Below, in pieces: positions 763 through 20,776 of a stretch of DNA of 24,105 nt. Under the pieces are notes generated by a model. The model searched no databases, had not been told where the DNA came from, and saw nothing but the letters and a program-made list of their open reading frames with translations. The DNA is from Nitrososphaerota archaeon (GTDB taxonomy: Archaea > Thermoproteota > Nitrososphaeria > Nitrososphaerales > JAPUIC01): positions 1 to 24,105 of the forward strand of contig JAPUIC010000103.1 in the NCBI GenBank assembly GCA_027297425.1, read 5' to 3'. A program made the position numbers and the translations under genes. How positions within the stretch are numbered: the stretch's first letter is position 1; the number at the start of each line of letters is the position of its first letter.

Positions 763-2028
763 TTGAGTCGCTCCCAAAAGACCGGTTTTTCTAAACTACT
801 TACTATCGACGATGCAATGCGGAAATTTTTCTCTTATGGCGTTGTGCACAGGATACAAACAGTAGAAGTGCCAATAGTGTCCTCGGTAGGTAGAGTCCTT
901 GCGTCGAACTTGGTGACAAATATCGATCTTCCTCCATATGACAGGTCCGCGGTAGATGGTTTTGCGCTGAGGGCTGAGGATACCCTAAGAAGTTCAGAGA
1001 ACAATCCGATCTCATTAAAGATTGTAGATGTGGTAGAGATTGGTACTACACCCAAAGTGCCAGTAGGAAGGTTAGAGGCAGTCCGGATTTCCACAGGAGC
1101 GCCAAGGCCCGAAGGAGCAGATGCAGTGGTGATGATAGAGCATACGGCACAGAAGAAAGATCAAGTCAGAATCTTCAATCCTATCTCAGCATGGAAGAAC
1201 ATGATCAGAAAAGGCGAAGATGTCAAGGTCGGGGACCTCTTGCTTGAAGAAGGCGCTGAGATAATGCCCCAAGATGTCGGAATGCTCTCAGCTCTCTCAT
1301 TCAGCTCGATCAAAGTTATTAGAAAACCTCGAGTAGCTGTCCTGTCAGTCGGGGATGAGCTGTTAAAGGAAGGTAGCGAGCAAACTTATGGTAAGACTGT
1401 TGATATTAACAGACCCGCAATTTTGTCCTCACTTCTCCAAGATGGATGCGAACCTCTAGATTTAGGTATTGTTGGAGATGATTTTGGTATAGTAGAAGAG
1501 AAAGTGAAGGAAGCGTTGGAGAAGAACGATATGCTCTTAGTAGGAGGTGGAACCTCTGTAGGATCCAAAGATATCGTACCCGATGTATTAGATTCTCTCG
1601 GGGAACCAGGTATTGTGGCTCACGGTTTAGCAATGAGGCCTGGAAAACCTGCGGGTTTGGCTATCCTAAACAAGAAACCAGTTGTTCTACTACCAGGCTT
1701 CCCTGTAGCAGCATTAATAACGTATAGTATCATTGCAAGGCCTATCATCTTCCGATTGCTCGGGAGCGAGAATATTAGAAATACGGGCGATATCGTAAAA
1801 GCTAGACTAACTCGTAAAATAGACTCCCCTCCTGGTATTAGAGAATTTGTAAGAGTAGTTATCAGAAATAAGTCACCAGGATTCTCTGCTGAGCCTGTAA
1901 CGGCTACTGGAGCATCTATCCTATCATCAATGGTTAGGTCGAATGGCATTCTAGTCGTTCCTGAAAATATAGAATCTATTAGACAGAATGAACCAGTGGA
2001 GGTCAGATTAATCAGACCTCTTAAGTGA
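763..2028 (+). CDS. moeA: molybdopterin molybdenumtransferase MoeA
   Basis: 421 aa with MoeA-type motifs: SAVDGFALRAED, ISTGAPRPEGADAVVMIE, GGGTSVGSKD, MRPGKP. It starts at TTG, with no in-frame ATG before the conserved N-terminal helix (LLTIDDAMRKF). Confidence 0.9.
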   Translation: MSRSQKTGFSKLLTIDDAMRKFFSYGVVHRIQTVEVPIVSSVGRVLASNLVTNIDLPPYDRSAVDGFALRAEDTLRSSENNPISLKIVDVVEIGTTPKVPVGRLEAVRISTGAPRPEGADAVVMIEHTAQKKDQVRIFNPISAWKNMIRKGEDVKVGDLLLEEGAEIMPQDVGMLSALSFSSIKVIRKPRVAVLSVGDELLKEGSEQTYGKTVDINRPAILSSLLQDGCEPLDLGIVGDDFGIVEEKVKEALEKNDMLLVGGGTSVGSKDIVPDVLDSLGEPGIVAHGLAMRPGKPAGLAILNKKPVVLLPGFPVAALITYSIIARPIIFRLLGSENIRNTGDIVKARLTRKIDSPPGIREFVRVVIRNKSPGFSAEPVTATGASILSSMVRSNGILVVPENIESIRQNEPVEVRLIRPLK

Positions 2029-2128
2029 ACAATGAATCTAGTTGATATATCATGCCATCAGTCTATGTCTCGGATGCTGGCACCTGAACATACCAAATCC
2101 TCATTATCCCAACCATTTTCTTGAAAGA

Positions 2129-2139
2129 TTTTAATTTTA
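2129..2139 (+). promoter_or_regulatory. TATA-box-like element upstream of the SnoaL-like gene
   Basis: TTTTAATTTTA lies 22-32 nt upstream of ATG 2161. This spacing fits an archaeal TATA box driving a leaderless or short-leader mRNA. Confidence 0.4.
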
Positions 2140-2160
2140 CAAAACTTGTGGATATTCATA

Positions 2161-2541
2161 ATGACACTAAGGGACTTTGCAGAACGCTACTATGATGCAA
2201 TAAGTCGGAGAGATATTGAATACATATTCAGCTTGTTCGGGGATAACGCAACACTATATTTTCCTAGCCAGCATGAGTATAAGGGTAAGGATGCGATAAT
2301 GACATTCTTTAGAGACGTATTCTTTCAGCAATTTGTAAGAATTGAATATCGTGACCTAACAATCGTTCAATCTTCGGAGAATATTGCCATAAAGGCCTAT
2401 GTAACAGGTAATGTTTCCAATACAAAGAGTTTCGAGCAGATAAGATACTTTGAGTTCTTGGAACTCAGAGATGGTCATATATCAAGGTCCGAAATCTGTA
2501 TCGACATGCCGGCTCTAAGAGCTCAAGTGGGAAAATGGTGA
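2161..2541 (+). CDS. NTF2/SnoaL-like fold protein (ketosteroid-isomerase-like), function unknown
   Basis: The pattern FAERYYDAISRRDIEYIFSLFGDNATLYFP...GKDAIMTFF...ISRSEICID is typical of SnoaL-like domains. I prefer ATG 2161 (MTLRDF..) over the track's TTG 2146 because of the TATA-like element at 2129-2139. Confidence 0.6.
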   Translation: MTLRDFAERYYDAISRRDIEYIFSLFGDNATLYFPSQHEYKGKDAIMTFFRDVFFQQFVRIEYRDLTIVQSSENIAIKAYVTGNVSNTKSFEQIRYFEFLELRDGHISRSEICIDMPALRAQVGKW

Positions 2542-2613
2542 CGTTAAGCATAAATCACTAAAAATTCACTATTAATATATCTAAGTAAATTCGAATTATA
2601 GGTAGAGCTGAAA

Positions 2614-3630
2614 ATGGATAAGGCCTCGCAAAGAGTGGAAAATCTTCATGACTCGTATGGCAGGCTTGCCTCGAAGCTCAGGATATCAATAACGGATAGG
2701 TGCAACTTCAGATGTAATTTTTGCATGCCTAGTCAACCAGTCTGGCTTCCTCATGACGAGATTTTGACTTTCGAGGAGATTGTGAGAACGGCTAGAGTTC
2801 TTAGCCAGATGGGTATCGATCGAATAAGACTTAGCGGAGGGGAGCCTCTAGTGAGGAAAGATGTAGAAGGTCTGGTATCAATGCTGAGCAGAATCGATGG
2901 GATAAAGAGCATTGGAATGACTACGAACGGTTCACTTCTAGCAGCCAAGGCCTCTGCGTTGAAGCGGGCAGGATTAAGTAGTGTCACAATTAGTCTACAT
3001 AGCCTTAAACCCGAGCGCTTTGACAAGATCACTGGAACAAATGGAATCTTCGATAAGATAACTGAAGGAATCGAGGCCGCTAGGTCGTTGGATTTCAAGC
3101 CCTTGAAGATAAATTGTGTAATTACACGGGGTGAAAATGATGATGAGATAATCGATTTTGCAAGGTTCGCGCATGAGACTGGAGTAACTGTTCGCTTCAT
3201 AGAATACATGCCCTTCGATGGAACGAAACTTTGGGACGCCCATAGGGTCATAACTGGCGAGGAGATCGTGGATAAGATCAATAAGATTTACCCGGTAGCG
3301 AAGATCGAGCGAGAAACAGGGAGCACAGCTATCGAATATAACTTCGAGGACGGATCCGAAGGTGGGATAGCAACTATAACCTCTATGTCAGCCCCATTCT
3401 GTGGTGATTGTGATAGGATTAGGATTACTGCCGATGGAAAGGTTGTTCCGTGCCTTTTCTCTAGAGACGAGTATGATATTAAGTCAAAACTACGTGCTGG
3501 AGCTTCTGATGAAGAGCTGTCCGCGTATATCAGGAGTGTTTACTTTAGAAAGTCGCCCGGTGTAGAGACAATGATAAAGAATAAAGCTAACCTAGAGCAT
3601 GTTAGGCCGATGCACACCATCGGAGGCTAG
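2614..3630 (+). CDS. moaA: GTP 3',8-cyclase MoaA (radical SAM)
   Basis: CNFRCNFC is a radical-SAM CxxxCxxC motif. The C-terminal second cluster is CGDCDRIRITADGKVVPC. GGEPL is present and the protein ends in Gly-Gly, as in MoaA. Confidence 0.93.
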   Translation: MDKASQRVENLHDSYGRLASKLRISITDRCNFRCNFCMPSQPVWLPHDEILTFEEIVRTARVLSQMGIDRIRLSGGEPLVRKDVEGLVSMLSRIDGIKSIGMTTNGSLLAAKASALKRAGLSSVTISLHSLKPERFDKITGTNGIFDKITEGIEAARSLDFKPLKINCVITRGENDDEIIDFARFAHETGVTVRFIEYMPFDGTKLWDAHRVITGEEIVDKINKIYPVAKIERETGSTAIEYNFEDGSEGGIATITSMSAPFCGDCDRIRITADGKVVPCLFSRDEYDIKSKLRAGASDEELSAYIRSVYFRKSPGVETMIKNKANLEHVRPMHTIGG

Positions 3631-3670
3631 ACAACACTAATCCTAGTATTAATCATACAGTAGAGTAGAG

Positions 3671-4300
3671 ATGGATAAGAAGGATCAGGCGGCAGTTGTA
3701 CTTGCTGGCGGTTCTAGTCGAAGAATGGGGTATGATAAGGCATTCATAAAGCTCGAGGGTGTAGAGATGCTTAAACGGATTGTTGATCTGGTATATAGTA
3801 TAACATCAGAGGTAATTGTCGTTATAGATAAGGAAGCAAATCCTGATAGATACCGTGGTTTGGTCCCCGGGGATGTTAAGATCATAAATGATCTCAAGAC
3901 TGGCCAAAATCCACTCATTGGGGTCTATAGTGGCTTATCAATAGTGTCTAACAAATATGCACTATTGATCCCTTGCGACGTCCCTTTCCTAAACCGAGGA
4001 ATCATTCAGTTAATCTTTGAGAGATCAGACGGGCATCAAGCGGCGGTTCCCCGGTGGCCCGATGGCAGAATCGAGCCATTAATGTCGGTTTATAGAGCTC
4101 ATGAAGGGTTTAATCTAGTGCAAAAATTAGTAGGTAACCGCTCTAGCTCCATGAATGATTTTGTTGATTCGTTTGCAGACATTGCATTCGTTGAAATTGA
4201 AAGCCTGCGCCATCTTGACAACGGTTTACTGACGTTTTCAAACATTAATACTCCCGAAGACTTGAAGAAGATGGAGTTGGTTGCGGGAGAATCGCTCTAA
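3671..4300 (+). CDS. mobA: molybdenum cofactor guanylyltransferase MobA-like
   Basis: N-terminal AAVVLAGGSSRRMGYDKAF nucleotidyltransferase motif (LAGGxSxRMG), 209 aa, adjacent to moaA. Confidence 0.85.
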   Translation: MDKKDQAAVVLAGGSSRRMGYDKAFIKLEGVEMLKRIVDLVYSITSEVIVVIDKEANPDRYRGLVPGDVKIINDLKTGQNPLIGVYSGLSIVSNKYALLIPCDVPFLNRGIIQLIFERSDGHQAAVPRWPDGRIEPLMSVYRAHEGFNLVQKLVGNRSSSMNDFVDSFADIAFVEIESLRHLDNGLLTFSNINTPEDLKKMELVAGESL

Positions 4301-5640: not shown

Positions 5641-5720
5641 CTCTGGCCACATTCTCTCAATTATTTTTCCATGGTGAAAGATGGATAGCCCGGGCCAGAC
5701 TCGAACTGGCGTCACCGGCT

Positions 5721-5732
5721 CTCTTCCAATGA
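5721..5732 (-). other. canonical-position tRNA intron (12 nt, 37/38)
   Basis: Intron UCAUUGGAAGAG. Exon CUUU (positions 32-35) pairs with intron GAAG. The bulges are GG|U and AG|A, and the remaining 5 nt form a loop (relaxed BHB/BHL). Confidence 0.8.
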
Positions 5733-5745
5733 CCAAAGGCCGATA

Positions 5746-5763
5746 ATCAAGAACGATTAGTTT
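5746..5763 (-). other. non-canonical tRNA intron (18 nt, between D-stem positions 24/25)
   Basis: Intron AAACUAAUCGUUCUUGAU. The central 4-bp helix is CAAG (5766-5769) with CUUG (5748-5751). The 3-nt bulges are CA|A and AU|U. The inner helix is AAC/GUU and the outer helix is CGGU/AUCG. Removal leaves a normal D-stem (GUGU/GCAU) plus A26. Confidence 0.75.
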
Positions 5764-5813
5764 TGCTTGACCGCTACACCACCGGGCTACCAAATCATCG
5801 GCTGGCTGCAACT

Positions 5814-6052: not shown

Positions 6053-6739
6053 ATGCAGAGGTTTAAGGTCAGCGAGGTCTTTAGGAGTATTCAAGGGGAA
6101 GGAGAAGCCGTTGGTCTACCTTCTGATTTCATTAGGTTGTATACCTGCAATCTTACATGTAGCTGGTGTGACACTAAATATACCTGGGTAGGGCAAGACA
6201 GAGCTATCGAGGGTAAAGACTTCATCTACCTAACCTCGAGAGAGATTATCGATAGACTCACTAAGATAGGTAATACAAAGCACGTTACGATAACAGGAGG
6301 GGAGCCTCTGCTACAACCGATCGAAGAGTTAGTCATGGAACTAAAGGGAAAGGGAAGGAGTGTCATTATCGAAACAAATGGAACCATCGAGCCTTCAGAA
6401 ACTCTCCTGAATTTAGTAGATATCTGGTCTATATCGCCTAAAACAAGCAACTCCGGGACAAAGTATGATTATGGAAAGATGCAATGGATTAACCGTACGA
6501 AGGGGTATTACCTGAAATTTGTGGTGGTTAATCCCTCTGAGGATATTAGGGAGATCTCCCAGTTCGTAGATTCGAGAGGGATAAAAGACAATAAAGTCAT
6601 CTTGCAACCAAACGGTGTAAGCAGAAACTATGAGAAATGTGTGACGGAGTTGATGGACTATGCTGTGTCCGCTGCTTTACCGTATAGAGTAGTGCCCCAG
6701 ATACACAGGTTGGCATGGGGATTGACCAGAGGTAAGTAG
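6053..6739 (+). CDS. queE: 7-carboxy-7-deazaguanine synthase QueE (radical SAM)
   Basis: N-terminus MQRFKVSEVFRSIQGEGEAVGLPSDFIRLYTCNLTCSWCDT (the QueE SIQGEG motif plus a Cys cluster) and GGEPLL. 228 aa. Confidence 0.9.
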   Translation: MQRFKVSEVFRSIQGEGEAVGLPSDFIRLYTCNLTCSWCDTKYTWVGQDRAIEGKDFIYLTSREIIDRLTKIGNTKHVTITGGEPLLQPIEELVMELKGKGRSVIIETNGTIEPSETLLNLVDIWSISPKTSNSGTKYDYGKMQWINRTKGYYLKFVVVNPSEDIREISQFVDSRGIKDNKVILQPNGVSRNYEKCVTELMDYAVSAALPYRVVPQIHRLAWGLTRGK

Positions 6740-6743
6740 ACTG

Positions 6744-8228
6744 TTGTGTAGCATTAACGGCTTGATCCTTTTCGAAAAAGAGAGGGATAACACGGAACTT
6801 CACGGGATAGAAGAAAGGCTTAGGGCGCTTATCGTTCGGGCCGAGGACCGGGGGAGAGATAGTTATGGGATTGTTTCATTTGAAAATGATAATTCTGTAA
6901 GGATTGTGAAAGAGACTGGATCGCCGTCGAAAAGTTTGAATGAGAAATCACGGTTAATTACGGCAAACACGAAAGTGGTTATCAGCAACAATAGAGCAGA
7001 ACCAACTACGGAGTTTGTCTATGAAAAGTTGGATACGGATATCCAGCCCTTAGGCAGTGAGATATTCGTCTCACACAACGGAACTATTGCTAACGATAAT
7101 GAACTGCAGAAGCGGTATAATCTCACTCGCCATAGTAAAATAGATACGAGTATCTTACCTCCTCTTTTAGATCACTTATGGAGTTCCGATCGACGTATTG
7201 AGGTACTCGTGGAAGTTCTTAGGGAAGTAGTAGGGAGCTTCGCTTTAGCGATAGTAGATAGATGGAAGCCGGACCATCTCTATCTAGCCTGTAATTATAA
7301 GCCGATTTACATGGAATATGACTATAACCACGAAGTGATGTTCTTCACTTCTCTAGAAGATTATTTTGGGAATAAATCCCTTTTTGATAGCAATCCAACC
7401 AAACAGCTCAAACCGTACAGTGTCTTATCCATCAATACTTCCCGAGAACAAAGAGAGTGCGAATTGCTTCCAGAACATACGAAGAACAAACGGAAAGCCC
7501 TAGCCGTTTGCAGTGGTGGCTTGGATAGCACTATTGCAGCAAAAGTTGCAGATAAAGAGGGATATGATATAACACTCTTGCACTTCAAGTATCGGCATAG
7601 AGCAGAGTCCAAAGAGGAACAGGCGGTTCAACGGGTATCAAAGGCATTGGCTTGCGAGCTTATTGTGGTAGATACAGATCTCTTCAGAGATGCCATCGGG
7701 TCCTCTAACTTGGTTTCCAAGACATTAGAAGTTAACAGACAGAACGAGGGCAAGTCAGGGGCCGAGTTTGCTTCTGAGTGGGTGCCAGCTAGAAACCTTA
7801 TCTTTCTATCAATAGCAGTAGGAATCGCAGAGTCCAAGGGTTACGATTTCATTATTCTTGGGAATAATCTTGAGGAATCCGGATCATATCCAGATAATGA
7901 GATGATCTTCATCAATAAGCTAAACGAAGTCTTACCCTATGCGACCAATTTGGGGAAGAAAGTTAGCATTCTGATGCCCTTAGGTAATCTGGTAAAACAC
8001 GAAATAGTAAAGACGGGTTTGGAGGTGGGAGCACCCATACACCTTACATGGTCCTGTTATGAAGGAGGCGATAATCCTTGCAATAGTTGTGGTCCGGACT
8101 TCATGAGGCGACATGCTTTTAGAATCAACAAGGTTATTGACCCGATAGCCGACGATCTCAATAATACATTCTGGGAAGGTTGTGAGAAATTCCCTCAACC
8201 GATTCCCTTGTCTCAGGATTCAAGATAA
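6744..8228 (+). CDS. class-II glutamine amidotransferase / QueC (7-cyano-7-deazaguanine synthase) fusion protein, GAT-QueC type
   Basis: It starts TTG-TGT, giving Met-Cys (MCSINGL..), the N-terminal nucleophile Cys of Ntn/class-II GATases. The C-terminal half has the PP-loop ALAVCSGGLDST and the QueC zinc cysteines WSCYEGGDNPCNSCGPDFMRRHAF. It lies 4 nt downstream of the queE stop. Confidence 0.85.
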   Translation: MCSINGLILFEKERDNTELHGIEERLRALIVRAEDRGRDSYGIVSFENDNSVRIVKETGSPSKSLNEKSRLITANTKVVISNNRAEPTTEFVYEKLDTDIQPLGSEIFVSHNGTIANDNELQKRYNLTRHSKIDTSILPPLLDHLWSSDRRIEVLVEVLREVVGSFALAIVDRWKPDHLYLACNYKPIYMEYDYNHEVMFFTSLEDYFGNKSLFDSNPTKQLKPYSVLSINTSREQRECELLPEHTKNKRKALAVCSGGLDSTIAAKVADKEGYDITLLHFKYRHRAESKEEQAVQRVSKALACELIVVDTDLFRDAIGSSNLVSKTLEVNRQNEGKSGAEFASEWVPARNLIFLSIAVGIAESKGYDFIILGNNLEESGSYPDNEMIFINKLNEVLPYATNLGKKVSILMPLGNLVKHEIVKTGLEVGAPIHLTWSCYEGGDNPCNSCGPDFMRRHAFRINKVIDPIADDLNNTFWEGCEKFPQPIPLSQDSR

Positions 8229-8293
8229 TCATCTGGCAAAACTTACTTAAACCTAGGCTTCAGCCCTCGGCATAGAGAAATTTGCCGCCACCA

Positions 8294-9733
8294 ATGAAAA
8301 AAATTTCTGACGTAGTTTGGGAGATTCCTAAAAGCTACAAAGCAGGTATGCTAACTCCTGCCAGGATAATTGCCACGAAGAAGATACTACAAGAGATGGA
8401 TGAACAAGTATACGAACAGTTGACCAATGTTGCAACCTTACCGGGACTGATTAATCACGCGCTGTGCATGCCCGATGGTCATAGCGGTTACGGTTTTCCG
8501 ATAGGTGGGGTAGCAGCCATGGATGCTGAGAACGGCGTTATCTCCCCAGGAGGTATAGGATTTGACATCAATTGCGGAATGAGGCTCGTACTTACAAACT
8601 TGACTGCCGACGATGTTAAGCCACATCTCAAGAAATTAGTTGATGAACTCTACCTAAAGGTACCTGCAGGAGTAGGTAGTAAGGGTTTTGTGAAGCTCAG
8701 TCATAATGAGTTCAAGGAAGCTGTTGAAATGGGTGCAAAATGGTGTGTTGAGAAGGGTTATGGTTGGGAGGAGGATCTAAGGCGGATCGAAGAAGATGGC
8801 TGCATGGAGGGTGCTGATTCCTCGAAAATATCGATTAGATCCATTCAACGGGGAGTTGATCAGATCGGAACTCTTGGGTCTGGGAACCATTATCTTGAGA
8901 TTCAAGTTGTAAAGCCAGAGTTCATCTTCGATAAAGACGCCGCCAAAACTCTTGGAATATTCCCTAATCAAGTAGTAATAATGTTTCATTGTGGGAGTAG
9001 AGGATTCGGTCATCAGGTAGCAACCGACTATCTTCAAACATTCTTATCGGTCATGCATAGCAAGTACGGTATACGAATCCTTGACAGAGAGCTGGCTTGT
9101 GCCCCCTTTAATTCGCCAGAGGGTCAAAATTATTTCGCAGGAATGAAATGCGGGGTCAATATGTCATTCATGAATAGGCAGGTAATTCTTCATCGTATTA
9201 GAGAGGTCTTCTCATCTATATTTCGCTCGGAACCAGAGGATCTAGGCCTACATATGGTATACGATGTCGCTCATAATACAGCTAAACTCGAGAAGCATAC
9301 CGTAAATGGGGAGAAAAAAGAAGTATTGGTACATAGAAAGGGAGCCACTAAGGCTTTTGGTCCGAATTCAGAAGGGCTTCCTCCTGAATTTGCTAAGCTC
9401 GGTCAACCTGTAATCATCGGTGGTAGTATGGAGACAGGGTCGTATCTTCTACTGGGGACTGAGACTGCTATGAAAGAAAGTTTCGGGAGCACTTGTCATG
9501 GAAGCGGTAGGACTATGAGTCGAACTAGAGCCAGACACCTTTTCCGAGGCGATAAGCTACAAAGAGATATGGAGCAGAGAGGAATATATGTCAAAAGCGT
9601 CTCATATTCCGGTTTAGCGGAAGAAGCTGGAGCAGCCTACAAGGACATAGACGAGGTTGTAGGGGCAGTAGATCAGGCGGGAATTTCCAAGAAAGTAGTT
9701 CGGTTCATACCTATAGGGAACGTTAAGGGTTAA
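8294..9733 (+). CDS. rtcB: RNA-splicing ligase RtcB (3'-phosphate/5'-OH ligase)
   Basis: Motifs MPDGHSGYGFPIGGV, GSGNHYLE, HCGSRGFGHQ, AHNTA and CHGSGR. I prefer ATG 8294 (MKKISDVVWEIPK, which aligns with archaeal RtcB N-termini) over the track's TTG 8282. No intein. Confidence 0.95.
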   Translation: MKKISDVVWEIPKSYKAGMLTPARIIATKKILQEMDEQVYEQLTNVATLPGLINHALCMPDGHSGYGFPIGGVAAMDAENGVISPGGIGFDINCGMRLVLTNLTADDVKPHLKKLVDELYLKVPAGVGSKGFVKLSHNEFKEAVEMGAKWCVEKGYGWEEDLRRIEEDGCMEGADSSKISIRSIQRGVDQIGTLGSGNHYLEIQVVKPEFIFDKDAAKTLGIFPNQVVIMFHCGSRGFGHQVATDYLQTFLSVMHSKYGIRILDRELACAPFNSPEGQNYFAGMKCGVNMSFMNRQVILHRIREVFSSIFRSEPEDLGLHMVYDVAHNTAKLEKHTVNGEKKEVLVHRKGATKAFGPNSEGLPPEFAKLGQPVIIGGSMETGSYLLLGTETAMKESFGSTCHGSGRTMSRTRARHLFRGDKLQRDMEQRGIYVKSVSYSGLAEEAGAAYKDIDEVVGAVDQAGISKKVVRFIPIGNVKG

Positions 9734-9749
9734 TTAAATCGCAGAACAT

Positions 9750-10649
9750 ATGAAGACACCCGTTTCGATCCTAACAGGATATCTCGGTAGTGGAAAAACT
9801 ACTCTCCTACGGCGGATATTGAATGAGACCACAAAGAAGGTAGCGGTTATTATCAACGAGTTTGGAGATATCGGAATTGATGGGAGAGTGATCAAGGGCA
9901 AGAATGTCAATATGATCGAGCTGACGGGAGGTTGTGTCTGTTGCTCTTTAGAAGGAGAGTTCAAAGCCGCCATCAAAGAAATAATTACGAAGACAAATCC
10001 TGAATTAATCTTGGTCGAGACGACAGGTGTGGCAGAACCGGAAGCAATTGCTTTCGACCTAGAAGAAAGCCTTCCAGAAGTTAGACTGGATTCCGTTATC
10101 ACTGTGGTTGATGCGGACGGGATCATGATGTTCCCTAGCATAGGCCATACTGGACGGGTTCAGATCGAGATGGGAGATGTAATTCTCGTAAATAAGATAG
10201 ATTTAGTTAATCCTAGAGATATCATAAAGGTAGAGAAGAAGCTCCACGAAATTAACGGGAAAGCTACACTTTTTCGAACGTATAAATGTGAAATTGATTC
10301 TGAGTTACTCTTTGGGACATATACAACTAAAACCACTGAACAGATGCACAAACACAAACATGACCCAAAGATAGATTTATTCCAAATTTCAGTCGACCAA
10401 GAGATTCAAAGAGAAGGGCTCTCTGATTTTTTATCGTCACTACCCAGAGAGGTGTACCGAGCGAAGGGATTGATTGTGATAAAGAATCATGGGTTGCACC
10501 TTCTGAACTACGTTGTAGGTCGATGGGATCTGGAACCTATGCCCGGTAATTATTCATCTGGAAATCAATTAGTCTTCATCGGAGAGAGAGTAGGAAGTAA
10601 GAAAAAAGTGATAACCGAAAAGTTGAACGAAGTATTGATGAGAAAGTAG
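9750..10649 (+). CDS. COG0523-family (CobW/YjiA-like) metallochaperone GTPase
   Basis: P-loop GYLGSGKTTLL, the hallmark CxCC motif (GGCVCCSLEG), NKIDL, and a His-rich linker EQMHKHKHDPK. It lies 16 nt downstream of rtcB. Confidence 0.88.
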   Translation: MKTPVSILTGYLGSGKTTLLRRILNETTKKVAVIINEFGDIGIDGRVIKGKNVNMIELTGGCVCCSLEGEFKAAIKEIITKTNPELILVETTGVAEPEAIAFDLEESLPEVRLDSVITVVDADGIMMFPSIGHTGRVQIEMGDVILVNKIDLVNPRDIIKVEKKLHEINGKATLFRTYKCEIDSELLFGTYTTKTTEQMHKHKHDPKIDLFQISVDQEIQREGLSDFLSSLPREVYRAKGLIVIKNHGLHLLNYVVGRWDLEPMPGNYSSGNQLVFIGERVGSKKKVITEKLNEVLMRK

Positions 10650-10779: not shown

Positions 10780-11865
10780 TCAAGGTTTGATTAGAGCTTT
10801 GATCGAACGGCTATAAGGTGGCTTAGCTATCCCTCGCTCGGTTACAATAGTATCGATGAGATGAGGAGGAGTCAAATCAAAAGCTGGATTTAGAATTGGA
10901 ACGCCCTTTGCAGCAATTCGCTTTCCTCTGATCGTTGTTACTTCCGCTGGGTCTCTCTCTTCGATTGTGATGTCCTTAGTATCAGACTGCAGATCGAATG
11001 ATGATGATGGAGCTGCCACGATAAACGGTATGTTGAACGTCTTTGCAAGAATCGCTAACTGAGAGGTCCCTATCTTGTTAAAGATGTGGCCATCACGCAT
11101 TATACGATCTGCGCCCACTATTACCTTATCGACCATACCGTTAGCCATTATATGGCCTACAGCAGTATCTGTGAGCAATTTGCATTGGAACCCATCCCTA
11201 GCCAGCTCAAACGCAGTTAATCTAGAGCCCTGTAGGGCTGGCCGTGTTTCTGGGACGTAAACAGTGATTCGTTTACCTTGTTTTTTAGCTGTCCTCAGTA
11301 TTCCTAAAGCAGTACCATAACCGACTGTTGCGAGTGCTCCCGCGCTCTGCTGACCTAAAGGTCATTTACAGTGTGTGAGCACGCTATCGCCATCATGGAG
11401 TAACTTAGAGCCATGTTCACCCATTTTCAGATTTCCAGCTACATCATCTTCGGCCATTTTGAGAGCGCTCTTTTTCACGGCGGCTTTAATGTTGGTCCCG
11501 TCTTTTAGTGCTTTTTTGCCATCCTTCAGAACTACGTCCGTGGCCCAGACAATATTTACCGCTGTCGGCCGAGTCTTCACCAATTCTCTGGATGCATGCT
11601 CTAGCTCCCGGATGAGTTCCTCGCTAGTCCCATTAGTTTTTGTAGCTACGAGGGCCATTCCCATGGCTGCAGTAACGCCTATGGCTGGAGCACCTCTTAC
11701 AACCATTTTTTTTATCGAACGAACAATGTCGTTAAGAGTTTTGCACTTTACGAAGGTCAGAGAGTTTGGGAGTTTTGTCTGATCTATGAGAACAACTGAA
11801 TTGTCCTCCTCGTCCCACTTGACGGTTCGCATCGAGTAGAAGGTTTCCATGTCTAAAGTTTCCAA
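10780..11865 (-). CDS. mtnA: S-methyl-5-thioribose-1-phosphate isomerase-like protein (MtnA / aIF-2B family), interrupted by a 21-nt insert carrying the only in-frame stop
   Basis: The track's two ORFs (11362..11865 and 10780..11178) share one frame, which is open throughout except for TGA at 11362-11364. Family motifs: [91 protein letters not shown]. After removing 11345..11365 the product is 354 aa. Confidence 0.85.
11345..11365 (-). other. putative BHB-type pre-mRNA intron (21 nt) within the mtnA-like CDS
   Basis: In mRNA sense: ..CUGU AA|A UGACCUUUAGGUCA GCAG AG|C.. The 4-bp helix is CUGU/GCAG. The 3-nt bulges AAA and AGC lie on opposite strands, and the hairpin is UGACC-UUUA-GGUCA. Excision joins UGU AA|C GCG, restoring Cys-Asn-Ala-Gly of the conserved THCNAG motif. 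Confidence 0.6.
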
Positions 11866-11903: not shown

Positions 11904-12467
11904 TTGAGTGAAGAAACAAGTACCGAAGAGGAGCTAACAACTTTTGTTGGTCAGTTATCCGCCAACGGAGTAACGCTTACCGATACTTTGGTTATTGAGG
12001 AGTTGACTAAAAGAGGTTATGGCGATATGGAGAAGAAGAAACTGGTGCTGAGGGATTACGAAATGCTGTACCTCACCCAAGTAGGAAAGATGACTGTCCT
12101 CAGGGGTAAGAAGCAGGTGAAATATGAGGATCTGGTGGAAGAAGCTCTTGAACGAGATTCCACTGCTTGGACTCGATTTCTTGTGTATCGAGACCTCAGG
12201 AGTAGAGGATATGTTGCTAAAGAAGGGTTCGGCTTTGGAGTAGATTTCAGATTATATGATAGGGGAGACTTCGGGGGCAAGGCTGCCAGATATGTTGTCT
12301 TCGGACTAAATGAGGGGACAGAGAAAGAAGCAGAGAGTTTTCGAAAAGTAGGGGAGGATATCTTGAAGATGGGCAAAGAGCCAATATTGGCCGTTGTAGA
12401 AAGAAGAGGTGAGATCATCTACTATAAAGTGTCGAAGTGGAGGCCTACGAAGTCAACTCCGAAGTAA
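11904..12467 (+). CDS. endA: tRNA-splicing endonuclease (EndA-family) subunit, probably non-catalytic/structural
   Basis: The C-terminal domain FLVYRDLRSRGYVAKEGFGFGVDFRLYDRG....YVVF...KEPILAVVERRGEIIYYKV aligns with M. jannaschii EndA (YLVYKDLRTRGYIVKTGLKYGADFRLYERG..EHSVYLV..KKLLIAIVD..IVYY, from memory). The whole 187-aa ORF contains no histidine. TTG is the only available start upstream of the conserved N-domain. Confidence 0.85.
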   Translation: MSEETSTEEELTTFVGQLSANGVTLTDTLVIEELTKRGYGDMEKKKLVLRDYEMLYLTQVGKMTVLRGKKQVKYEDLVEEALERDSTAWTRFLVYRDLRSRGYVAKEGFGFGVDFRLYDRGDFGGKAARYVVFGLNEGTEKEAESFRKVGEDILKMGKEPILAVVERRGEIIYYKVSKWRPTKSTPK

Positions 12468-16144: not shown

Positions 16145-16702
16145 CTAGGAACTAGAGATCAGAAATGCGTGGGGAAGCTCGGGCAATAGAAGACTCAAAG
16201 CCGTTCGCACGCCATCTGGCGATCCAGGTAAGCAAAAAACCAGTTTACCTTTGTCAAGAGTTCCACCGATTGCTCTAGTGAGTAAAGCTGGAGACCCGAT
16301 TTTGCGGTAAGTGATGCCCCTAAAGATCTCCCCAAAGCCTTCAATTTCCTTAGTTATCAAGGGTTTTACCGCTTCGATAGTAACATCCCTTTCAGAGATT
16401 CCAGTTCCACCCATTATTAACACAACATCGGCCTTCTCTTCAAGGATGGCCTTGAGTAGTTCTAGACGTATGGACCATAGATCGTCATTGAGTAACTTCC
16501 TGGTTGTTCGTTCATGACCTGCGCGTTTGATCATTTGTTCTGCTATATCTCCTGACTCATCCGTGAGTTCGTCGCGCTTCTCCTTTTGTTGGAAAAATTT
16601 AGACGTACTAACCGTTAGTAAACCGATCTTCAGTTTTTGTGGGGCTCTCTTTCTATGTTCTTCATGAGCCTTAACTCTTATCTTTCTGTCTCGATTAGCC
16701 AT
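16145..16702 (-). CDS. moaB: molybdenum cofactor biosynthesis protein MoaB (MogA/MoaB family)
   Basis: HEEHRKRAP..KIGLLTVS, GGTGISERD, and LPGSP near the C-terminus. The start overlaps the moaC stop by 8 nt. Confidence 0.88.
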   Translation of the reverse strand: MANRDRKIRVKAHEEHRKRAPQKLKIGLLTVSTSKFFQQKEKRDELTDESGDIAEQMIKRAGHERTTRKLLNDDLWSIRLELLKAILEEKADVVLIMGGTGISERDVTIEAVKPLITKEIEGFGEIFRGITYRKIGSPALLTRAIGGTLDKGKLVFCLPGSPDGVRTALSLLLPELPHAFLISSS

Positions 16703-17141
16703 CTTTGCCTTTCACCTTGCTTACCACCGACACATCATATATCTTAGTAGTTGGGTACTGACCATTCTTATCCTTCTCATATTTCTTCACCACATCCCAA
16801 ATATTTAGGAGAGCGGCAGTTACCGCACTCAATGCCTCCATTTCGACGCCGGTCTTCCAATGCGTCCTTACAGAAGCCTTAACCGAGATAGATTCTTTCT
16901 TAACTTGAAATTCTAATTTAACGTTCTCTATAGGAATTGGATGACATAGTGGCATGATCGTTGGGGTCAGTTTGGTGGCAGCTATTCCAGCAATGTTCGC
17001 AATATCGACTGGATTACCCTTTTCAATCTTCCCTTTTTTTATCAAACCAATCGTCTTCTGCTGAAGCATAATTGTGCCTTGAGCCGTTGCCTCTCTTAGG
17101 ACAATAGCTTTCCCAGAGATATTTGCCATATTGATCGCCAT
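16695..17141 (-). CDS. moaC: cyclic pyranopterin monophosphate synthase MoaC
   Basis: 148 aa with TGVEMEALSAVTAALLNIWDVVK and LCHPIPI motifs typical of MoaC. Confidence 0.93.
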   Translation of the reverse strand: MAINMANISGKAIVLREATAQGTIMLQQKTIGLIKKGKIEKGNPVDIANIAGIAATKLTPTIMPLCHPIPIENVKLEFQVKKESISVKASVRTHWKTGVEMEALSAVTAALLNIWDVVKKYEKDKNGQYPTTKIYDVSVVSKVKGKDG

Positions 17142-17238: not shown

Positions 17239-18666
17239 ATGCACGAGTTTTCGAAGCTCTTCGAACCACGTTCTGTAGCGATAATTGGTGCCTCTGCTAC
17301 CCCCGGGAAGGGAGGATACATTATCTTATCGAGTATTATACAACATAAATTCGCCGGGAAGATCTATCCAGTAAATACAAAGGAAAGTGAGATCCTCGGA
17401 TTAAAGGCCTATCCCAATCTCAAAAAGATCCCAGGAGAGGTCGATCTGGTAATAGTCTGTGTCCCTTCACTATACGTCAAAGATGTGCTCAAAGAATGTA
17501 TCGTAAAAAAGGTTAGTATTGCACTTCTGATTACAGCGGGATTTGCTGACGCCGGCGAAGAAGGCGAAAAAATCCAGAAGGAGATCACTGCCATAGCAAA
17601 GAAAGGTGGTTTACGTCTCATCGGTCCTAACTCTATCGGCATTGCCAATCCCTTCAATGGGCTTGTAGCCTCCCTCGTGCCATTTCCGACATGGAAGAAA
17701 GGCACTATTGCATTCGCAGCCCAGAGTGGGGTCTTGGCCGGCTCGATTACTCAATATGCGATGGAAGAGGAAGATTTTGGTTGTGGAAAAACTATTGGGT
17801 TGGGTAATAGTGCAGATCTAGATAGTGTAGATATGATCGATTACTTCCTGGATGATAAGAAGACTAGTACACTTGGTCTCTATATAGAGACCATACGTGA
17901 TGTTGATAGATTAATCAAGGCAGCTTCCAAGTTTGCAAGAAAGAAGCCGCTTGTAATGGCAAAGTCGGGAAGTACCGGTAGGGGCGCCTTCGCAGCATCT
18001 TGCCATACGGGAAGCAAACGTGTTAATGAGAGGCTGGTCAAAAAGGTGTTTAAGCTCAGCGGAGCTGTCCGTGCGTCTGGATGGACTGAGCTTTTCGACT
18101 TCACCAAGACCTTCGACCGTGAGCCATTACCAAAGGGTCCCAGAGTAGGCATAATGACATTGAGTGGTGCGTCTGGAGTATTGGCTACCGATGCCGTAGT
18201 AAAAAGCAAACTGGTTATGGCGCCTTTAACAGCGAAGACGGAGAAGATAATCAAGGACAAAGTGTATCTCTCCTGGCAGAAATTTAACCATCTAGCACCT
18301 ATCGATATTTGGGCCTCATTACTCGGTAAAGACGCGGAGTTCGTCCAAGAGACTACACTCAAGACCCTTATGAGAGATGAAACTGTAGATAGTGTACTTG
18401 CGGTACTGCTAGCCGTCGGCCCCGCAGTATTCGATCCGAAGAGGGTCTTTTCTGAAGCGAGAGCTATCGATCCAGAAAAGCCACTAGTTGCCGCGGTCCT
18501 TGGAGATGCCGGCCTTACTCGTGACTGGCTACATAGACTGGATGAGGCTAACATTACTGCTTTTGGTACACTTGCAGCTACCGAGCGCGCTGTCCAGGCC
18601 CTTAGCGCACTATACCTTAGGAGACTCTATCTGAATGACGTCTCTAAGGAGATTAGAACTGAATAA
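17239..18666 (+). CDS. ADP-forming acyl-CoA synthetase alpha-subunit-like protein (CoA-binding + succinyl-CoA-ligase-like domains), divergent paralogue
   Basis: PRSVAIIGASATPGKGGY, GLRLIGPNSIG, AFAAQSG. The phospho-His region reads GAFAASCHTGSKRV (His at 18004-18006), which deviates from the canonical AASHTGSLAG. Confidence 0.75.
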   Translation: MHEFSKLFEPRSVAIIGASATPGKGGYIILSSIIQHKFAGKIYPVNTKESEILGLKAYPNLKKIPGEVDLVIVCVPSLYVKDVLKECIVKKVSIALLITAGFADAGEEGEKIQKEITAIAKKGGLRLIGPNSIGIANPFNGLVASLVPFPTWKKGTIAFAAQSGVLAGSITQYAMEEEDFGCGKTIGLGNSADLDSVDMIDYFLDDKKTSTLGLYIETIRDVDRLIKAASKFARKKPLVMAKSGSTGRGAFAASCHTGSKRVNERLVKKVFKLSGAVRASGWTELFDFTKTFDREPLPKGPRVGIMTLSGASGVLATDAVVKSKLVMAPLTAKTEKIIKDKVYLSWQKFNHLAPIDIWASLLGKDAEFVQETTLKTLMRDETVDSVLAVLLAVGPAVFDPKRVFSEARAIDPEKPLVAAVLGDAGLTRDWLHRLDEANITAFGTLAATERAVQALSALYLRRLYLNDVSKEIRTE

Positions 18667-19360: not shown

Positions 19361-20776
19361 ATGGAACCTTCGACAGTCGATCTAAGAGCGTTAATGGAAC
19401 CATCTTCCGTGGCCGTAGTAGGTGCTTCATCGACTCCAGGTAAGACTGGATACATTATCCTAAAAGGTATGATGGATCATGGTTACAAAGGACGTATCTA
19501 TCCGATTAACCCAAAAGAGTCCGAAATTTTAGGCTTAAGAGCGTTCCAAAACGTCAATGCAATTTCAGACCCTGTCGATCTTGTGGTCATAGCTGTTCCA
19601 TTTAGAGGAGTAAAGGATGTAATCAAAGATTCCGTTGAGAATAGGGCCAAGTTTGGCCTTATTGTTACTGCCGGTTTTAGTGAGATAGGTGACCTCGGCG
19701 CTAATGAGGAGAGAGAGATTACTGAAATAGCCAGAAATGGGGGGATGAGGCTTCTCGGCCCAAATAGCATCGGGATGGTAAACAAGAGTGTCGACCTCGT
19801 TATCAGTATTGTTCCTTTTAAGACATGGAAGAATGGTGGAATATCCGTAGTTGCACAGACCGGTATCTTCGCTGGCGCTTTAGCTGCAAATGTAATTGAT
19901 ACCCAGAACGTAGGGCTAGGGAAAAGTATCGACATCGGTAACAGGTGCGACCTGACGGAACAGCCGTTGCTCGAGTATTTTGCTGAGGATGAACATACCA
20001 ACGTGGTAGGGCTTCATATGGAAGGGATTAGAGAAGGCAGATCATTACTAGAAGCGTCCAAGAAGGTATCATTGAAGAAACCGATAGTGGTTCTAAAAAC
20101 TGGAAGGAGTGAGGTAGGAGCGAAAGCTGCTGCTTCTCATACAGGCTCGTTAGCAGGCGACGATATCGTTGCGGATGCAGCTTTCAGACAGGCTGGACTC
20201 ATCAGAGCTAACACGCTTCAAGAAATGATCGACTGGCTCAAAGTGTTCGACTACCAGCCTACACCTAAAAGTGGTAGAGTTGGAATAGTGACCCTCAGTG
20301 GTGCGCTAGGTGTGATCGCCAGTGATATGGCTTCCAATGTTGGAATGAAGCTAGCTGAAATCGAGGATAGCACCAAAAATGAGATACAGAAAGAGATCAT
20401 GCCCGCATGGCCGGTCAGGAACCCGGCTGACATTTGGGTCTCATTAGGGCTTGAGCCCGAAAGGTCCCACCGCATAGCATTAAAGAAGATGATTGAAGAC
20501 CCCAACGTGGACAGTCTGATAGTTCTTCTTCTTGCACTCCAGCCAGCTAGGTGCGATATGGCCAAGGTCTTCAAAGAGGCAGTTGACGCTGCCCCAAGCA
20601 AACCGATAGTTGCAGGCATGATGGGAGCCAAAGAGATAGAACAAGAGTGGTTTGATGCACTTGAGGGAATAGGGATACCTTCGTATAAGGGCTCAGATTG
20701 TGCAGAGAGAGCGACAAGCGCGATGGGTGCATTGACGACATACGGTAGTATTCTTCAATCTAAGCGGCAGAGCTAG
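19361..20776 (+). CDS. ADP-forming acetyl/acyl-CoA synthetase alpha subunit
   Basis: PSSVAVVGASSTPGKTGY, GMRLLGPNSIG, SVVAQTG, and the canonical phospho-His motif GAKAAASHTGSLAGDD (His at 20138-20140). Confidence 0.8.
   Translation: MEPSTVDLRALMEPSSVAVVGASSTPGKTGYIILKGMMDHGYKGRIYPINPKESEILGLRAFQNVNAISDPVDLVVIAVPFRGVKDVIKDSVENRAKFGLIVTAGFSEIGDLGANEEREITEIARNGGMRLLGPNSIGMVNKSVDLVISIVPFKTWKNGGISVVAQTGIFAGALAANVIDTQNVGLGKSIDIGNRCDLTEQPLLEYFAEDEHTNVVGLHMEGIREGRSLLEASKKVSLKKPIVVLKTGRSEVGAKAAASHTGSLAGDDIVADAAFRQAGLIRANTLQEMIDWLKVFDYQPTPKSGRVGIVTLSGALGVIASDMASNVGMKLAEIEDSTKNEIQKEIMPAWPVRNPADIWVSLGLEPERSHRIALKKMIEDPNVDSLIVLLLALQPARCDMAKVFKEAVDAAPSKPIVAGMMGAKEIEQEWFDALEGIGIPSYKGSDCAERATSAMGALTTYGSILQSKRQS

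Follow-up and report, generated by a model that had tools for sequence, protein, structure and literature searches.

The mtnA gene of a Nitrososphaerota archaeon is very likely interrupted by a bulge-helix-bulge (BHB) intron. The gene lies in a stretch of 24,105 nucleotides (nt) from a metagenome-assembled genome (MAG) (assembly GCA_027297425.1, contig JAPUIC010000103.1, positions 1 to 24,105; hereafter, the window), and the proposed intron is a 21-nt segment of the mtnA pre-mRNA encoded on the reverse strand at 11345..11365 (AUGACCUUUAGGUCAGCAGAG). Since 2002, the only established intron in an archaeal coding region has been that of cbf5 in some Crenarchaeota ("only one example" according to PMC7714728, from 2020). 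Within the literature searched, sequence comparison strongly supports mtnA as what would be the second protein-coding gene family, after cbf5, with a BHB intron.

A 21-nt insert interrupts mtnA at its catalytic motif

Translation of the reverse strand showed that positions 10780..11865 form one frame with a single internal stop, the TGA at 11362-11364, as described in an earlier note made from the sequence of the window. The stop falls inside the 21-nt segment. Deleting 11345..11365 joins UGU AA|C GCG, which rebuilds an Asn codon and, as the note had claimed, the hallmark motif of the MtnA family. Exon 1 (11366..11850, reverse strand) would thus extend from the ATG at 11850 to the AA of the split Asn codon, specifying residues 1-161, through the Cys of the THC catalytic motif, plus two bases. 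Exon 2 (10780..11344, reverse strand) would begin with C, the third base of that codon, and end with the stop codon at 10780-10782; the first start codon within exon 2 of the window is 62 codons downstream, and none is near the junction. The uninterrupted product anticipated in the note was recovered but not its length of 354 amino acids (aa), which corresponds to an upstream TTG at 11865; the likely start is ATG 11850, giving 349 aa after excision.

The spliced product matched the NCBIfam models PRK05720 (427 bits; cutoff, 271) and TIGR00512 (396 bits; cutoff, 279) over residues 5-347. This full-length match places the host gene, previously called mtnA-like, in the MtnA family, with S-methyl-5-thioribose-1-phosphate isomerase as the predicted product. 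In intact MtnA homologs, including the top matches to the spliced protein, the hallmark is read without a gap (e.g., THCSTGTLAT) and the seven extra residues of the unspliced frame are absent, in agreement with the expectation that orthologs lack the insert.

Read without excision, the frame yields a 162-aa N-terminal fragment (METFYS...THCK), for which gene callers choose the same ATG 11850. Gene finders call this fragment in 16 members of its 90%-identity cluster, and all 16 are exactly 162 aa long. JGI labels the fragment "methylthioribose-1-phosphate isomerase." At NCBI, a single accession number separates the neighboring RtcB (MCZ6613907.1) and EndA (MCZ6613909.1) proteins, yet two genes, cobW-like and mtnA, lie between them. 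Judged by this numbering, the mtnA gene of the window apparently has no NCBI protein record.

Predicted fold of the insert

The complete motif spans 11334..11382 on the reverse strand, as supported by the sequence and an RNAalifold consensus, and all of the elements named in the note were found where it had placed them. In the mRNA sense, the first bulge is AAA (11365-11367) and the second is AGC (11344-11346). They lie on opposite strands, separated by a 4-bp central helix in which CUGU (11368-11371) pairs with GCAG (11347-11350), which is the arrangement that defines a BHB motif. On the intron side, the hairpin UGACC-UUUA-GGUCA (11351-11364) closes the first bulge with a 5-bp UGACC/GGUCA stem, where helix h' of the motif calls for at least two Watson-Crick pairs. 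On the exon side, an outer helix joins 11373-11382 to 11334-11343, with 8 of 10 positions paired, and includes GUGCUC (11377-11382) and GAGCAC (11334-11339). On the basis of this predicted structure, the motif is a relaxed BHB motif. Relaxed motifs are frequent in cbf5 introns and are substrates of hetero-oligomeric endonucleases (PMC2738675).

A motif found in a single sequence is modest evidence; the decisive evidence is positional and comparative. The motif of the window sits on the exact codon at which excision repairs the gene, and the same is true of 45 other loci, which places the coincidence far beyond chance. A loose generic BHB scan was discarded for lack of discrimination (145 matches in the window with a strict outer helix; shuffles averaged approximately 284 at the relaxed setting).

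Related loci carry inserts in the same codon

A protein-guided scan of one genome per species identified two MAGs labeled Candidatus Bathyarchaeia (L004 and L011) in which MtnA is 57-58% identical to that of the window and the frame changes exactly after THC-AA. Their inserts, 29 and 28 nt long, consist of CUGC, AAU, an 8-bp hairpin, GCGG or GCAG, and AAU. A single exact-pattern scan of a metagenome collection, in which the exon flanks were specified and 10-40 nt of any sequence allowed between them, returned 46 contigs, 43 of which contain mtnA with an insert in the identical Asn codon. The matches in the other three, L019, L052, and L057, were rejected as introns. L057 (WNFQ01056895.1, 2511..2560) carries an otherwise unrelated mtnA with a perfect 25-nt tandem duplication, GCGCAACTGTGCTCACGCATTGCAA, present in two copies; it ends at the same TGC-AA|C junction and shifts the frame, has no BHB fold, and could be either an artifact or a real mutation. 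The window, the two Bathyarchaeia MAGs, and the 43 metagenome contigs make a total of 46 loci. This number is a lower bound because the search pattern demanded conserved exon flanks.

These loci contain 28 distinct inserts, of 19, 21, 22, 23, 24, 27, 28, 29, 31, 33, or 38 nt. The lengths are mostly not multiples of three and therefore shift the frame, so that the downstream exon is readable only after excision. In all 28 inserts, bulge 1 is AAA or AAU and is directly followed by a hairpin of 3-11 bp and then by GCAG or GCGG; bulge 2 has A at the first position, A, G, or U at the second, and U or C at the third. A cut placed behind nucleotide 2 of each bulge produces AAU or AAC, both encoding Asn, at 46 of 46 loci. 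The two intronic positions of bulge 2 vary (AA, AG, or AU) and the third, exonic position is always a pyrimidine, as expected if the cut follows nucleotide 2; were the cut one nucleotide earlier, the AUU versions would encode Ile here. Once the insert is excised, each complete locus contains one uninterrupted open reading frame (ORF) of approximately 340-380 aa (442 aa in L036, counted from the upstream stop), and no further stops or frameshifts were present.

The insert could in principle be an assembly or sequencing artifact or a strain-specific insertion, and the duplication at this very spot in L057 may itself be an artifact. The exact 21-nt insert of the window, however, also occurs in L018, L024, and L047, which are contigs from other samples, and the uniform 162-aa length of the fragment cluster likewise argues against an error in one assembly. 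We regard an artifact as virtually out of the question.

Another possibility is translational recoding without RNA splicing, in which the ribosome would hop over the insert in the manner of phage T4 gene 60, shift frame, or read through the UGA. A hairpin does lie right behind the interrupted codon, many versions have a stop codon (UGA, UAA, or UAG) directly after AAW, and cbf5 introns were formerly mistaken for frameshifting (PMC2738675). The take-off and landing triplets that hopping would use nevertheless do not match in several versions (AAA/AGC in the window, and AAA/AGU and AAU/AUU elsewhere), and in the 19-nt versions the take-off codon is not followed by a stop. Readthrough could operate only on in-frame lengths, such as the 21 nt of the window, whereas the inserts of most lineages shift the frame, and lengths of 19-38 nt would demand a different recoding event in each lineage. 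Moreover, the feature that is conserved, two 3-nt bulges 4 bp apart, is recognized by the splicing endonuclease and has no role in hopping. Recoding is highly unlikely on these grounds, and a BHB intron accounts for the conserved bulges and the split Asn codon.

Intact counterparts were sought among 5.8 billion proteins. None was more than 59% identical to the spliced MtnA of the window (P0001 set aside), and none was more than 65% identical to the spliced product of L021, from an abundant lineage with a 28-nt insert; the collection thus holds no close intron-less alleles and no captured spliced transcripts of these genes. The top match, P0001 (460 aa; from a 3890-nt ENA contig), has approximately 110 residues directly repeated within it (ELKHDGIDVS...NPAFDMTPPEL occurs twice), most likely through an assembly duplication. 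It was rejected as a close relative, being a duplicated assembly of a distant MtnA, and has no identity value.

Selection on the exons and conservation of the fold

A stop codon within the gene and the apparent lack of an NCBI protein record would also fit a plain pseudogene, in which a small insertion had disabled mtnA and the gene was decaying. The note had named the buildup of further lesions in relatives as the sign of such decay. No such lesions were found: identity among the intron-bearing proteins falls as low as 46%, but the insert occupies the identical codon at all 46 loci and is the only interruption. Ratios of nonsynonymous to synonymous substitution (dN/dS), calculated by the Nei-Gojobori method for 13 locus pairs, were 0.06-0.28 and were equally low in exon 1 and exon 2. 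For the window and L018, the ratio was 0.22 in exon 1; in exon 2 it was 0.14 for the window against both of its close relatives, L018 and L047. Both exons are under purifying selection, including the one downstream of the frameshift or stop. Because the insert also keeps a structured, covarying architecture, as described next, a decaying pseudogene is extremely improbable.

The proposed structure was tested on a MAFFT alignment (A1) of 31 distinct sequences. All cells of the central helix were paired (100%), and the changes seen there were one-sided, from C-G to U-G and from U-A to U-G. The hairpin was paired in 96.8% of cells, and four of the five pairs tested had changed on both sides, giving the combinations G-C/A-U, A-U/G-C, C-G/U-A/G-C, and U-A/C-G. 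None of 500 column shuffles reached the observed covariation score or percentage paired, and sliding the 3' partners by 1-3 columns lowered pairing to 29-49%. From the alignment alone, RNAalifold predicted the outer helix, the 4-bp helix, two unpaired triplets, and the hairpin. Alignment of the related loci, which the note had suggested as a check, came out in its favor: one insert position, preserved bulges and central helix, and compensatory changes in the hairpin.

Splicing machinery and an intron-containing tRNA

A gene for the RNA-splicing ligase RtcB lies at 8282..9733 on the forward strand (Pfam PF01139, 561 bits, full length), and its product is identical to the NCBI entry "RtcB family protein [Thaumarchaeota archaeon]" (MCZ6613907.1, cited above). 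An EndA-family gene (tRNA-intron lyase family; NCBIfam TIGR00324, 67 bits; cutoff, 59.6) is located at 11904..12467 on the forward strand, divergent from mtnA. We compared its product to the Methanocaldococcus jannaschii EndA (PDB 1a79), whose residue numbering is used here. The positions of Tyr115 and Lys156 are kept in the window, and the position of the catalytic His125 is occupied by Ala. The catalytic His is absent from all 24 distinct homologous EndA neighbors (27 loci), which have Ala, Pro, or a gap at this position. In the EndA neighbors of the Bathyarchaeia group (homologs including those of L004, L011, and L014), His also stands in place of Tyr115. The adjacent EndA is probably a noncatalytic structural subunit of a heteromeric endonuclease, and the catalytic subunit would be encoded outside the window.

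The window also contains a tRNA-Gln(UUG) gene at 5686..5788 on the reverse strand that, as the note had proposed, is matured by the same cutting rule. It has two BHB introns, one of 18 nt in the D-arm (5746..5763) and one of 12 nt at position 37/38 (5721..5732). When each bulge is cut behind its second nucleotide, both introns are removed and a 73-nt tRNA-Gln(UUG) is left, which ARAGORN accepts only in this form. Default ARAGORN and Rfam gathering-threshold scans detected no RNA gene in the window; the tRNA was missed because its introns hide it. Brute-force enumeration of splice variants with ARAGORN as the judge was uninformative, as the program is too permissive, and the tRNA was solved by hand. 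This tRNA provides an internal check of the cutting rule and demonstrates introns at noncanonical tRNA positions in the organism. According to PMC5829648, such introns are handled only by endonucleases of the (alpha-beta)2 and epsilon2 types.

These observations suggest the following route to MtnA. In the transcript, the 4-bp helix would arise by pairing between CUGU, at the end of exon 1, and GCAG, at the intron's 3' end, with the bulges AAA and AGC flanking it on opposite strands. The intron hairpin UGACC/GGUCA would stack on one side, and a relaxed exon-exon helix, GUGCUCACAC/GCGGGAGCAC, with one unpaired A, would form on the other. An archaeal splicing endonuclease, presumably a heteromeric alpha-beta enzyme, would cut after the second nucleotide of each bulge, and RtcB would join the resulting 2',3'-cyclic-phosphate and 5'-OH ends. 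Joining would rebuild the Asn codon AA|C and produce an mRNA for the 349-aa MtnA, and unspliced mRNA would yield only the 162-aa fragment.

Cleavage could also occur without productive ligation, in which case the motif would be a switch, sensitive to the endonuclease, at which the mRNA is destroyed or cut into two halves that stay unjoined. Exon 2 lacks its own start codon close to the junction; it also keeps the reading frame that excision would create, and removal of the insert restores the split Asn codon as AAY in every case. With RtcB encoded nearby as well, we consider a switch of this kind very unlikely, and excision followed by joining the better description of the locus.

Points that weigh against splicing

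Several results speak against a spliced BHB intron and must be set beside the evidence above. First, the window does not have a strict hBHBh' motif, in which the exon-side helix h abuts the second bulge with at least two Watson-Crick pairs (definition from PMC7714728). The caveat in the note about the outer helix was correct: A11372 is unpaired and keeps the exon-side helix from abutting bulge 2, and beyond it follow a C-G pair, an A/C mismatch, a C-G pair, and an A/G mismatch before the 6-bp GUGCUC/GAGCAC helix. As a consequence of the unpaired A, the 3' splice site lies in a 1x3 internal loop rather than in a pure bulge. Second, the folding energy of the 61-nt region (z = -2.2 versus shuffles) is weak on its own, and a stringent motif scan, designed post hoc, found one site in the window, which is this one, with 0.42 expected per dinucleotide shuffle. 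Third, the catalytic His is missing from the adjacent EndA, and the window encodes no catalytic subunit. Fourth, a spliced-form protein or transcript of these lineages is absent from the collection of 5.8 billion proteins, which is weak evidence because the collection derives mostly from DNA assemblies.

Finally, most exon-flank bases were fixed by the search pattern, and those columns are not independent evidence for the outer helix. Free third-codon positions can be considered apart from them. Pairing with U2 and U5 of GUGCUC is possible for the opposite base in 30 and 27 of the 31 sequences, respectively. In 27 of the 31, Thr is encoded by ACG, which places a G-C pair by the bulge, with C-G and G-C adjacent after the unpaired A. 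Intron-less relatives have other synonymous codons at these places (ATATTAAC, ATATTGAC, and GTGCTGAC) and lack the GUGCUC/GAGCAC complementarity.

Our confidence in the structural and evolutionary claim is high. Cleavage and ligation in vivo, the enzyme type, and whatever role the intron may have are matters of inference, and by default we view the intron as a tolerated, inherited element.

Genomic context and distribution

At 28 of the 46 intron loci, mtnA has a divergently oriented endA-family gene upstream of it; no such gene adjoins mtnA in two intron-less Nitrososphaerales. In the intron-less loci L062 and L063, endA is also upstream and divergent, adjacent to mtnA in L063 and separated from it by one small gene in L062. 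Functional coupling between endA and the intron was rejected as an explanation of this adjacency; endA stands beside intron-less mtnA too, so the arrangement reflects lineage synteny and is no argument for coupling. The mtnA of L062 (3001..4047, P0053), an intron-less relative of the clade of the window, has TQCN in place of THCN, a change of His to Gln.

RNA-processing genes are clustered around mtnA between 5686 and 12467 of the window. Besides mtnA itself, the cluster comprises the intron-bearing tRNA-Gln, rtcB, endA, and genes for a QueE-like radical SAM protein (6053..6739), a QueC protein fused to an N-terminal glutamine amidotransferase domain (6744..8228), and a CobW-family GTPase (9750..10649). 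The rest of the context is ordinary: molybdenum cofactor genes at 763..4300 (MoeA, MoaA-like, and MobA-like) and in a second block at 16145..17141 (MoaB-like and MoaC), and two paralogous CoA-binding/succinyl-CoA-ligase-like genes with CoA_binding and Succ_CoA_lig domains (17239..18666 and 19361..20776).

By source label, the window comes from a Thaumarchaeota/Nitrososphaerota MAG and L004 and L011 come from Bathyarchaeia. In a neighbor-joining tree with bootstrap, intron-bearing genes fell into at least nine groups, four of them clades with 100% support, interleaved with intron-less genes. Support for the backbone was below 50%, which precludes a count of gains and losses. One origin followed by several losses would fit the common insertion site and the common end sequences (U-G/A-... 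and ...GCRG-A-N-Y).

Discussion

The literature searched, outside which most subscription journals lie, contained no paper pairing mtnA or methylthioribose-1-phosphate isomerase with BHB introns. The note had stated that only cbf5 is established among archaeal protein genes, and the sources found agree (PMC7714728 and PMC2738675). Besides an intron in the 5' untranslated region (UTR) of HVO_1309, the cbf5 intron of Crenarchaeota is the only reported archaeal BHB intron outside tRNA and rRNA (PMC7714728), and introns in other protein genes have been predicted and never confirmed (PMC2738675).

The closest parallel is the cbf5 pre-mRNA intron of Desulfurococcales and Sulfolobales (Watanabe 2002; Yokobori 2009; PMC2738675). 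Both introns are of the short coding-region BHB type (16-44 bp in cbf5 and 19-38 nt in mtnA), and both commonly have relaxed motifs. The cbf5 introns interrupt the codon of a catalytic residue (PMC2738675), and the mtnA introns the codon right after the motif Cys. Further likenesses are a patchy distribution with intron-less relatives, occurrence in lineages with hetero-oligomeric endonucleases (presumed in the case of mtnA), and annotation of the gene as broken or frameshifted. The host genes differ, cbf5 encoding an RNA pseudouridine synthase and mtnA a sugar-phosphate isomerase, as do the hosts, which are Desulfurococcales and Sulfolobales in one case and Bathyarchaeia and Thaumarchaeota/Nitrososphaerota MAGs in the other; the mtnA intron does not belong to the cbf5 type. 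In addition, cbf5 splicing has been shown experimentally, whereas mtnA splicing is a prediction from sequence.

Other systems share part of the proposed mechanism. Archaeal tRNA and rRNA BHB introns have the same two 3-nt bulges 4 bp apart and obey the identical cutting rule, but in mtnA the host is an mRNA whose frame is restored to the nucleotide and whose exon-side helix is coding and relaxed. In Haloferax volcanii, HVO_1309 likewise offers an mRNA substrate to the splicing endonuclease (PMC7714728); its intron lies in the 5' UTR leader, whereas that of mtnA interrupts the coding sequence. The unconventional HAC1/XBP1 splicing of eukaryotes (IRE1 with RtcB or Trl1) is also a protein-only, spliceosome-independent excision of a short mRNA intron that changes the frame, and in animals the exons are joined by RtcB, as proposed for mtnA. 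It differs in that the nuclease is IRE1 and not EndA, the substrate has twin stem-loops and not a BHB, and a regulatory role is known.

A bolder scenario, rather doubtful taken as a whole, is that the intron is ancient and vertically inherited, predating the split between Bathyarchaeia and Nitrososphaerota; that it was repeatedly lost, for example in ammonia oxidizers; and that it is kept because splicing gates MtnA production, as a counterpart of HAC1/XBP1-type regulated splicing. Many "pseudogenes" of uncultivated Thermoproteota (TACK archaea) could then be BHB-spliced genes.

With mtnA as a second case, archaeal mRNA splicing that depends on the endonuclease would extend beyond one gene family, with an intron fixed in many deep lineages of uncultivated archaea represented by metagenomes. 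Its 28 variants offer a natural series for defining the requirements of relaxed motifs, and the gene would provide a second independent system for studying how, under coupled transcription-translation, a coding-region BHB fold avoids the ribosome. There is also a practical consequence. Annotation pipelines either cut mtnA short at 162 aa or, it appears, discard it as a pseudogene, and metabolic reconstructions from such MAGs would therefore wrongly score the MtnA step as missing.

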